Shown here one piece after another: positions 42,009 to 58,456 of a DNA stretch of 64,000 bases. The notes beneath the pieces were generated by a model. It did not search any database, was not told the DNA's origin, and was given only the letters and a program-made list of their open reading frames with translations. Source of the DNA: Strigamia acuminata (Eukaryota). The DNA lies in the NCBI GenBank assembly GCA_949358305.1, contig OX442314.1, positions 7,254,001 to 7,318,000 on the forward strand. Reading direction: 5' to 3'. The number at the start of each line of letters is the position of its first letter. Position 1 is the first letter of the stretch. A program made the translations under genes and the position numbers.

Positions 42009-45000
42009 ATGCAGAATAATTTTTTGGTGGGAAAACTACGTCCGGTAATTTACCGATTGTTAAATGACGATAAAAACAAACTTCGATGCAACTTAATTGG
42101 TTTGGATGATTTCGTAAACAGCAGACGGCACTGGACAAAGCGTCACATCTTTTGGCTGCTTTTATTCTCATTTTGCACATGCGTGCTCACTTATCAGACT
42201 TATGATAGAATAATGCAATACTTAAGTTATCCTATGGCTGTTGATGTAACGAGTAAATCAGAAGATGTCATTCTTCCACAATTGATGATCTGTAGTAGCA
42301 ATACGAAAGAAATGGCGAGACTATGGAATAAAACTTACATTAAACTCAAAGCTCAACCGGATGAATGCTCTGATATGTTGAAAACTCTGATAACAAACCC
42401 AGCCTACAATGTAGACGAACTTTGGAAAGCTGCTAATTTGACGAAAGAAATAGTGAGCATAAAAATAAAAGTAAAAAGATAGAATAAAGCATTTTTTATT
42501 TGATCAATTAAAATGATTTTAACCTTTCATTTCGCACAGGGATATTCTAAATCAAGCAAAACAGTTGTTGTGGCAGAAATTGGATACATTTTGGGAATGT
42601 GCTCAACATTTCAATTTCGTATGTATACTGTATAACCAAAAATGTGTCTATCTAGCACTCTAATTCAATATGTTTTATTGCCACAGCAAAAGCTTCTAGT
42701 GACTCATTTGTTGGACAAGTACTGACGGTAAAAATGGAAAAAAGTTATGATAACATATGCCCTACAGCGCCATATTGGGTAATTTTTAATGAATTAAAAC
42801 TGTGATTTGTATTTATCATCTTCTTTTTGCAATTAGCTTTTCCTTGCATTTCATGATTTTGGAAGACAGCTTGGCATGGGAAGACAATTTATCGGTGGAA
42901 CAAAAAAAGTTTATTTGAATTACAACAAAGTAAGATTTAATCCAAGAATGTACATTTACTAAGGTTCGCTTAATTTTGTTTACAATTTTTAGTTCATATT
43001 TCTGAATTCACCGATAAATGAATGCTCCAGTGAAGATGAATTCAGAGAATGTTATCGAAGTTGTCTATTGAAAAGATTAAAACAGCATTTAACATGCAGG
43101 TAAGCATACTGCACATCAGATGGTATCGTACAATTGTTAGTTTTCATAAATAAATGTTCACACATCACTTTGATAAATAAAAAAACCAGTATAATGTCCA
43201 AATAGTTTTAGATTACACACAAACGCTTCATCACCGACATTCACAAGTGCTATCAATCCCACAATGCAATACAAACTCAATATTGTTACCAAACCCGTCC
43301 CATAATCCAACATAATCTCGAACCCACAATAATTTTACAAACAAACTCTCTAACAACAATCAAAAACATCGCCATCAAAAATCTTTTTTGCTAGATTCCC
43401 CTTCATGAAAATTGATTTGCCACTTTGCAAATGTTCAAAGGACATAAACATGCAATATGATGCTGCAAAACAGCTAATCGAAACCACAGATCCAATTTCT
43501 GTTTGCCAATGTCGACGTTCATGTGAAAAAATAACTGTTACACCATCCACTGAGACAGGCATGGCAGATGATAAAAAAGAATTTTCCGCGTCTTTAGAAA
43601 TAACTAATGATCGAATGAGCGTGTATGAAGAACGTTACACCTACGATGTTATCGCTCTACTGTCAGATTTGCTGCGATCCGGGTTTTTATCTACTTAATT
43701 TCTAATAAATTAAGCAGAAACCGCAGGTGAATGCTTAACAAGACTTATATCGCGGCCGAAACTTGTCTAGGGTTAAGTTTATGGAAATAAAGGCACAATT
43801 TAATATGGTAATAAAAATCACACAAATATTTATTCTTTAAATTACAATATATATTAAAAACGATGGAAATATCACAGAATGCGACAAGTCGCAAGAATAA
43901 ATGAGCGGGAACAATGGAAGGGCTTGCAACGACTGTTGCAAGCTACAAAGCGCTAAAATGGCGCTTAAACAACACACAGTTGTTAGGCGAAGGCGAATTG
44001 TCTTCGTTTGCTGAACTCACGAACGATGGTCGAAGACGATGGTTCTCGTGGGCTCCTTCTACGGCTCGTGCGACGGCTCGGCGGCGGTGGTTGACGGCTG
44101 TAGGCGTCCGGCTCTCGTACGATGGCGGTGGCTGTCGTTCGCGCGGCAGCGACGGCGATGGTTCACGATCGTCGGGAAACTTCTACTTCTCGATAGCTGG
44201 AATTAGCGACGGCTAATTCAAGCTGAATTGCTGGCTTTGTGCGTTTGATACACAAAGATAGCAGGCGAAACTGAGTTACAACGGTCCTCTATCAATACTT
44301 TTCTTTCAGGAGCAAAAGCAGTGATGTTGAGGTTGTTGTTGTATTTTTCAGAGTCCCGATTTGAGCCAAGACGCGAGCCCAGCACGCTTCAATATTGCGC
44401 AGAAAACCTGCGCACTTAGCTCAAATGGGTGCAACTAGTGGTTATTACACCATATTGCACCATAACGGCTAATAACCGTTTTCACCCCGGACAACCTGGG
44501 GTGATATGTGCCTAGAGAGGATTTCTCCCCTCGGTCACATGATCTGACTTGGCGTGTGCCACAGTCAAATTAATTAGAAGATAATTAATTTAATCTTCTA
44601 AGTTGGTGAATATTTTGAGATCACCACACATCCCCCCATTTAAGACGAATCTTACATGGAGAGAAAATGAACGAACCAATTTATGATTCGTCCATGTTCT
44701 GAGTTCGCTCGGGCGTCAACGGGCGCATCATATCCGTGGTGTCGTCCCTCGGGTTGGACCGCTCGTTAACCGTACACAGGTCGCGACCTGCGTTTGGTCC
44801 GGAGACCATTCCAGGGTTGACATGAAGCCAAACCTGGATGATTCTCGCCGAGTTCGCTCGGTTGAAAAATCCTAGCGCCGCAAACTCTATGGGATCCTCT
44901 GGCGCCAATCGTGCTCTCAGGAGTCGATCGTGGAGCACTGATGGTGGGCTTAACACCCGGATGTGGTCCTCGAGCCACATAAACACCTGCCTCGACAACT

Positions 45001-58456: not shown

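Follow-up and report, generated by a model that had tools for sequence, protein, structure and literature searches.

DEG/ENaC channels assemble as trimers. In the descriptions of these channels that we found, each polypeptide has two transmembrane segments (TMs) and three separate chains make up the channel; a natural tandem of subunits departs from that plan. The closest solved relatives of the genes discussed here are BRTNaC1 (431 aa; PMC9974506, PDB structure 8YMR) and PDPNaC1 (421 aa; PMC12714832, PDB structure 9JF7), monomeric chains with a short extracellular domain (ECD), described as antennal channels of Scolopendra that heat and protons gate (PMC9974506, PMC12714832). PDPNaC1 is a homotrimer (PMC12714832), and the closest solved structures contain three chains per PDB entry. 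The two proteins are the best matches by sequence, among solved structures, of a channel exon from the DNA analysed here (E about 1e-9). Our genes resemble both in the short ECD and resemble PDPNaC1 also in the missing HG motif, but they join two divergent subunits, with four TMs, in one chain, whereas BRTNaC1 and PDPNaC1 are separate two-TM chains that form trimers. Solely by analogy with these closest characterised relatives, a role as sensory, non-selective cation channels may be proposed.

The window, a 64,000-nt stretch of the Strigamia acuminata genome, contains a cluster of five related copies, A to E, on the + strand among many repeats. Coding exons 1-5 of copy C (42009-42470, 42540-42618, 42687-42778, 42837-42929, 42993-43099) encode the N-terminus, TM1 and most of the ECD of half 1. 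The junction exon follows in two parts: 275 nt (43395-43669) from the end of ECD 1 to the start of TM2, and 509 nt (56015-56523) with the rest of TM2 of half 1, a basic linker, TM1 of half 2 and the start of ECD 2. The last exons (56587-56671, 57394-57476, 57676-57771, 57839-57948, 58042-58456) encode ECD 2, TM2 of half 2 and the stop. Spliced by these coordinates, without the element inserted in the junction exon, copy C is one frame of 801 aa with GT-AG introns, a sole, terminal stop, and the order TM1-ECD-TM2-linker-TM1-ECD-TM2. A canonical DEG/ENaC polypeptide is one subunit with two TMs; here one frame is two subunits with four. Each half by itself has the marks of the superfamily, i.e., a match to the Pfam ASC family, TM1, Cys-rich ECD and TM2, and the TM2 motif D0'...GxS. 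A likely 5' untranslated exon lies upstream (41802-41880, + strand, start approximate); it was recognised by a motif common to copies B and D, which occurs with a GT donor at 31698, 41880 and 59940, before copies B, C and D, respectively, and it is out of frame with the ATG at 42009. For a third domain upstream of copy C, tblastn gave no match in 37276-42009, and the idea was dropped.

The two halves of copy C are 23-25% identical (BLASTP E 1e-18) and share a gene structure. Intron phases are 0,1,0,0,2 in both, exon sizes are 79/92/93/107 in half 1 versus 85/83/96/110 in half 2, and the five introns fall in alignment columns 128/125, 155/156, 185/184, 216/216 and 253/253 of half 1 and half 2, so that four of the matching introns lie within one column and one within three. 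The preliminary description, made from the sequence before this analysis, had noted a single frame with two TM1-ECD-TM2 units and the repeated phases and near-equal exon sizes, and splicing and the intron alignment bear out both. It had also placed the junction in a single 784-nt exon in three paralogs; copies A, B and C do each have the stretch from TM2 through the linker to TM1 within a single exon, but that exon is split in copy C and is 783 nt in copy B. The description mentioned neither the inserted element nor the broken state of the paralogs, nor the extent of the family, nor three-domain forms in other animals. A junction within one exon in all three copies argues strongly against a merge of two gene models.

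Pfam ASC (PF00858) is matched above the gathering score at both ends of both halves, in exon-level pieces: the N-terminal block at 41910-42479, two stretches each at 33087-33878 and 55984-56529, and the C-terminal block at 17226-18170 and 57839-58453. Of the two ASC hits and four TMs that had been expected from the first reading, the ASC domains are matched at exon level, but a Kyte-Doolittle scan (cut-off 1.5) passes only three of the four TMs of copy C; TM1 of half 1 is seen by Pfam and block-HMM matches only. Block-HMM order in the tandem proteins is N-T-N-T. The ECDs are about 291 aa each, with 13 Cys in half 1 and 12 in half 2, and the linker, basic and cytosolic, occupies about aa 399-435 of copy C (108 nt). 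The N-terminal segment that half 1 has in the window subfamily is missing from half 2, and in none of the copies A, B and C does an in-frame Met precede TM1 of half 2. The pre-TM1 HG motif is absent, half 1 having LIG/LTG at this place and half 2 nothing comparable. HG occurs in only 43% of insect PPKs (PMC8438182); missing from PDPNaC1 and from most insect PPKs, it is not strictly defining.

In the assembled sequence, TM2 of half 1 of copy C is interrupted by an LTR retrotransposon of the Ty3/gypsy type (43670-56012, - strand; 12,345 nt), assigned by its two LTRs, target duplication and the order of gag before pol. The LTRs are identical, 961 nt each (about 43670-44630 and 55052-56012); the element has a gag-like ORF, then pol (protease-RT-RNase H-integrase) and a third ORF; the target duplication is 4 nt, and in the joint of 43666 to 56012 four letters fit both sides. 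The third ORF, downstream of pol (44681-47020, 779 aa), has no Pfam match. With the element in place, the frame of copy C stops at codon 379. Splicing the element out via nearby GT/AG sites was considered and rejected, because it would shift the frame. A 699-nt contig joins 43666 to 56012 with no differences in two public DNA runs, at depths of 85 and 276, like neighbouring unique contigs; both runs come from one study, and one may be the source of the window. The uninterrupted junction exon exists as DNA. No RNA run was listed for this exon, which has no bearing on expression. The contig may represent an identical recent duplicate rather than a second allele. Most likely, the assembled haplotype carries a dead copy C and the insertion-free haplotype an intact one.

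No copy in the window is intact as assembled, and the window is a birth-and-death cluster. Copy A (15764-23366, + strand) has seven exons, with an open junction exon of 784 nt (17246-18029) and a stop at 23334; the first two and the last two of its coding exons could not be located within the 64-kb window. Copy B (31779-37276, + strand) has all exons, with a one-base frameshift near 33816 in the junction exon (33107-33889) and a stop at 36544. The frameshift shows no indel row against DNA contigs, and no contig among those listed bridges 33816-33838; because of the stop at 36544, copy B is broken whatever the status of the frameshift. Summed contig depth over its junction exon is far above single-copy values, which is not to be read as a copy number. 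Copy D (60574-61350, + strand) is a repeat-interrupted fragment of exon 1 with an in-frame stop at 61312 (tblastn match 61234-61350), and copy E (62900-64000, + strand) comprises exons 1-5, with a frame change near 63083, and runs past the window end. The different premature stops of copies A and B lie no more than three codons apart in the same ECD 2 exon, by chance or through repeated loss of the second pore helix.

Several other features lie among the channel genes. A second LTR element (23958-28646), with long identical repeats and one gag-like ORF of 1026 aa with a zinc knuckle, but no pol seen, sits where the last exons of copy A would be. Between copies B and C, two small two-exon genes (37914-38135 and 39711-39930) encode secreted six-cysteine peptides, one with a weak match (E 0.028, below the cut-off) to a cysteine-stabilised alpha/beta family; judging by sequence, the peptides are likely defensin-like, and similar flanking DNA near 30570-30760 suggests that their genes duplicate along with the channel genes. 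A Tc1/Tc3-type transposase gene, apparently with short introns, is found at 7818-8980.

To estimate selection between copies, dN/dS was calculated by the Nei-Gojobori method for three copy pairs, with bootstrap intervals. At dS of 0.34-0.47, whole-gene dN/dS is 0.41-0.54; across TM2-linker-TM1 it is 0.25-0.37, with upper bootstrap limits of 0.45-0.67, and in TM2 of half 2 it is 0.19 (0.05-0.52, one pair). The linker alone gives 0.37-0.72, with intervals that include 1, and is not distinguishable from the neutral value of 1. The 108-nt linker has no indel in any of the three pairs, whereas one or two gaps occur in every short intron pair. Ratios below 1 indicate purifying selection and, together with the indel-free linker, argue that both halves were kept coding, in one frame, before the recent lesions.

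With the junction exon as query, 206 proteins matched at E up to 0.001; among the 150 matches listed, 26 show a TM1 block after a TM2 block. All 20 of the 26 that were looked up are uncharacterised proteins of Strigamia maritima, none of these 20 coming from any other myriapod; the best S. maritima relative is 56% identical. The S. maritima tandems score 111-168 bits against Pfam ASC. Linkers between blocks in the tandem family are 31-59 aa long, and 21 of 21 are stop-free. A search of the Atlas returned ordinary ASC clusters. In the open-access main text covered by our searches, we found no natural tandem or single-chain DEG/ENaC. The main text of the S. maritima genome paper has zero occurrences of 'ENaC' (PMC4244043), and three to five TMs are predicted for 46 insect PPKs in a paper whose available text makes no comment on fusion (PMC8438182).

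Several S. maritima gene models are partial or scrambled; trees were built by domain, and domains shorter than 170 aa were excluded. In the window's family, all 16 first halves group together (SH-aLRT 96), as do 15 second halves with the fragment P0054 (SH-aLRT 96), and the two groups are sisters at 86; FastTree support for the groups is 98 and 93. Support is weaker in a 20-row tree of eight genes with bootstraps, at 73/74 for the first-half group, 91/88 for the second-half group and 92/88 for the two combined. AU tests reject trees in which the two halves of a gene are sisters, both for copy C (p 4e-67) and for P0009 (p 0.006). Merged neighbouring genes would not sort by position, so these clades speak against merges. 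The best reading of the sequences is probably one old internal duplication followed by expansion of the gene family. The earlier claims of an old duplication, and of a frame that is not a gene-model merge, both stand up well: the intra-exon junction, matching introns and position-specific clades support both, and dN/dS below 1 supports the second. One could still hold that the fusion is an artefact of merged models, or a pseudogene family never translated, since every window copy is broken as assembled and tandem ENaC gene merges do occur, as the mutually sister domains of the three-domain protein P0059 suggest; against the intra-exon junction, 21 of 21 stop-free linkers, dN/dS below 1, clades by position and an uninterrupted allele in DNA contigs, this is extremely improbable. 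As far as sequence can tell, the two-subunit DEG/ENaC fusion is real, old and family-wide, and appears to be a new architecture within a known channel family.

Other fused DEG/ENaC chains were found. In S. maritima, the models of a second clade (T1IU28, T1IZL2, T1ITG7, T1IL99; P0005, P0006, P0010, P0011) contain similar domains, from two to at least three each, and a repeated 43-aa linker. Monomer-like models fall in this clade too, which represents a second fusion or model merges. In P0059, with 1460 aa, three complete ASC domains are mutual sisters and are joined by linkers of 21 and 29 aa; the protein is a recent triplication or a set of merged neighbours. Among the matches listed, at least 10-11 of about 1000-1290 aa have three TM2 blocks. 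One three-domain query retrieved 11 proteins: the named ones are from Penaeus, Petrolisthes, Cherax, Palaemon and Halocaridina, and the other six are unnamed Logan entries, whose contigs of 2.4-3.6 kb match the coding sequence in length and are likely transcripts. Domains 1, 2 and 3 of the decapod proteins each form their own group, apart from the centipede halves; these comparisons point to DEG/ENaC fusion having arisen more than once. P0047, P0152 and relatives are decapod proteins of about 1030 aa with three domains, six TMs and a much shortened middle domain. These proteins are candidate single-chain trimeric channels. In an AlphaFold2 model of a decapod three-domain protein (pLDDT 72.8, pTM 0.62), there are six TM helices, and a turn of a few residues leads from TM2 to the next TM1. 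Where named, their entries read 'uncharacterized' or 'hypothetical', and we found no description of them in open-access main text.

The pore-lining TM2 differs between the halves across the family. D0' and G10' are invariant (23/23 first halves, 9/9 second halves), and G2' is kept in both halves, including all nine second halves. At position 3', in contrast, 23/23 first halves and the four monomers examined have Gly, and eight of nine second halves have Ser, Asn or Ala. Ser is found at 12' in 22/23 first halves and 6/9 second halves, and an acidic residue (Glu/Asp) at 18' in 17/23 versus 2/9. Of the divergent TM2s and short ECDs first remarked on, both are seen, but the short ECD is not peculiar to the fusion. 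The canonical TM2 of half 1, with its usual Glu/Asp at 18', and the divergence of half 2 at 3', 4' and 18' would suit a pore made as a homotrimer of first halves only, with the second halves outside as sensors or chaperones. Yet TM2 of half 2 keeps D0', G2' and G10' and evolves at dN/dS of 0.19, as expected of a pore-lining helix, and we consider such an arrangement decidedly unlikely.

Beta- and gamma-ENaC carry Gly at 3'. Mouse alpha-ENaC has Ser580 there (PMC8536179, table), and the pore of PDPNaC1 is tightest at the corresponding residue, Gly375 (PMC12714832). Loss of this Gly in most second halves, as in alpha-ENaC, favours one second half per pore. Heterotrimeric ENaC is thus a likeness in its asymmetric pore and in the Ser of its alpha subunit; unlike the tandem genes, it is made from three separate genes, has a large ECD and has no fusion.

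AlphaFold2 models the S. maritima tandem T1JD34 (P0009) with four TM helices and a disordered linker (pLDDT 76.9, pTM 0.71; the alignment mixed half-length rows, and pTM does not distinguish three-seat from four-seat geometry). Its best fold matches are BRTNaC1 and PDPNaC1, and ASIC1 is also matched; both halves are predicted to fold as DEG/ENaC subunits in one chain. Given the known trimeric structure, a two-subunit chain cannot close a three-seat ring alone. We propose, with a probability of roughly 55%, that the channel is a trimer of half 1, half 2 and a third subunit. Once folded, the two fused halves would take adjacent seats in an ordinary three-seat pore, and the third seat would be filled by another chain, most likely a monomer like BRTNaC1/PDPNaC1, otherwise half 1 of a second fused chain; the third subunit would carry Gly at 3'. 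Fusion would fix the order of two subunits: the first half is canonical, and the second, which is divergent, would set gate and selectivity, as in heteromeric ENaC. The nearest unnamed monomers to the tandem family are P0017 and P0021.

Three fused chains could instead form two linked three-seat pores, with one chain bridging, or longer chains of pores, and no monomer partner. Such an assembly needs no partner gene, uses all six halves, each with D0', G2' and G10', and could exploit the basic linker of 31-59 aa, which is predicted to be flexible; but one pore would then hold two second halves, i.e., two side chains at the tight 3' position, and our literature searches found no precedent. It is unlikely, though the least so of the alternatives. 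The same linker, being basic, variable and weakly constrained, might be a site of cleavage, or the transcript might be processed, so that the gene is a polyprotein or co-expression device for two ordinary subunits in a 2:1 or 1:2 channel, and engineered fusions do break down (PMC4529235). That would be hard to square with 21 aligned linkers that share no motif, with copies A, B and C, where no in-frame Met stands ahead of TM1 of half 2, and with a half 2 that lacks the N-terminal segment present in half 1 of the window subfamily; we regard this device as quite unlikely.

A four-seat pore from two fused chains, a dimer of dimers like K2P and two-pore channels, would complete the ring without a spare subunit. 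Typical currents were recorded from engineered two-subunit ASIC1a fusions, and their authors argued for tetramers, but these fusions broke down to monomer-sized bands (PMC4529235). Entries of the closest solved relatives contain three chains, PDPNaC1 is a homotrimer (PMC12714832), and the decapods fused three subunits, not four, a count that fits a three-seat pore; four seats are very unlikely. The tandem family directly tests subunit counting in DEG/ENaC channels, including the disputed ASIC1a tetramer claim, and supplies pore residues that evolved for particular seats, for which unstable engineered concatemers are otherwise used. Fused DEG/ENaC genes are easily thrown out or split as annotation merges.

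The 2+1 trimer can be set beside engineered and natural fusions. The engineered ASIC1a/ENaC concatemers (PMC4529235) have the same head-to-tail TM2-to-TM1 link on the cytosolic side, but they are laboratory constructs of identical full-length subunits, whereas the window genes are natural, with trimmed termini and halves about 24% identical. The decapod three-domain proteins (e.g., Penaeus vannamei LOC113814214) are likewise natural head-to-tail fusions with position-specific clades, but they have three domains, six TMs, a shortened middle domain and a separate origin in trees. Taken with the tandem family, they suggest repeated evolution of fused trimeric channels; to our knowledge, subunit fusion as a route has so far been known from four-fold channels. 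On balance, it is probable that single-chain DEG/ENaC fusion arose at least three times in arthropods: in the Strigamia two-subunit family, recruiting a third subunit in a 2+1 slot for combinatorial sensory channels or forming linked pores, in the second Strigamia clade, and in the decapod three-subunit chain, a trimeric counterpart of four-repeat Nav/Cav. Nav/Cav channels have four repeats, and two-pore channels and K2P have two. As in the tandem genes, fusion of subunits in these channels fixes their order and permits asymmetry of the pore. The difference is one of arithmetic: the number of repeats divides a four-fold pore, but two does not divide three.
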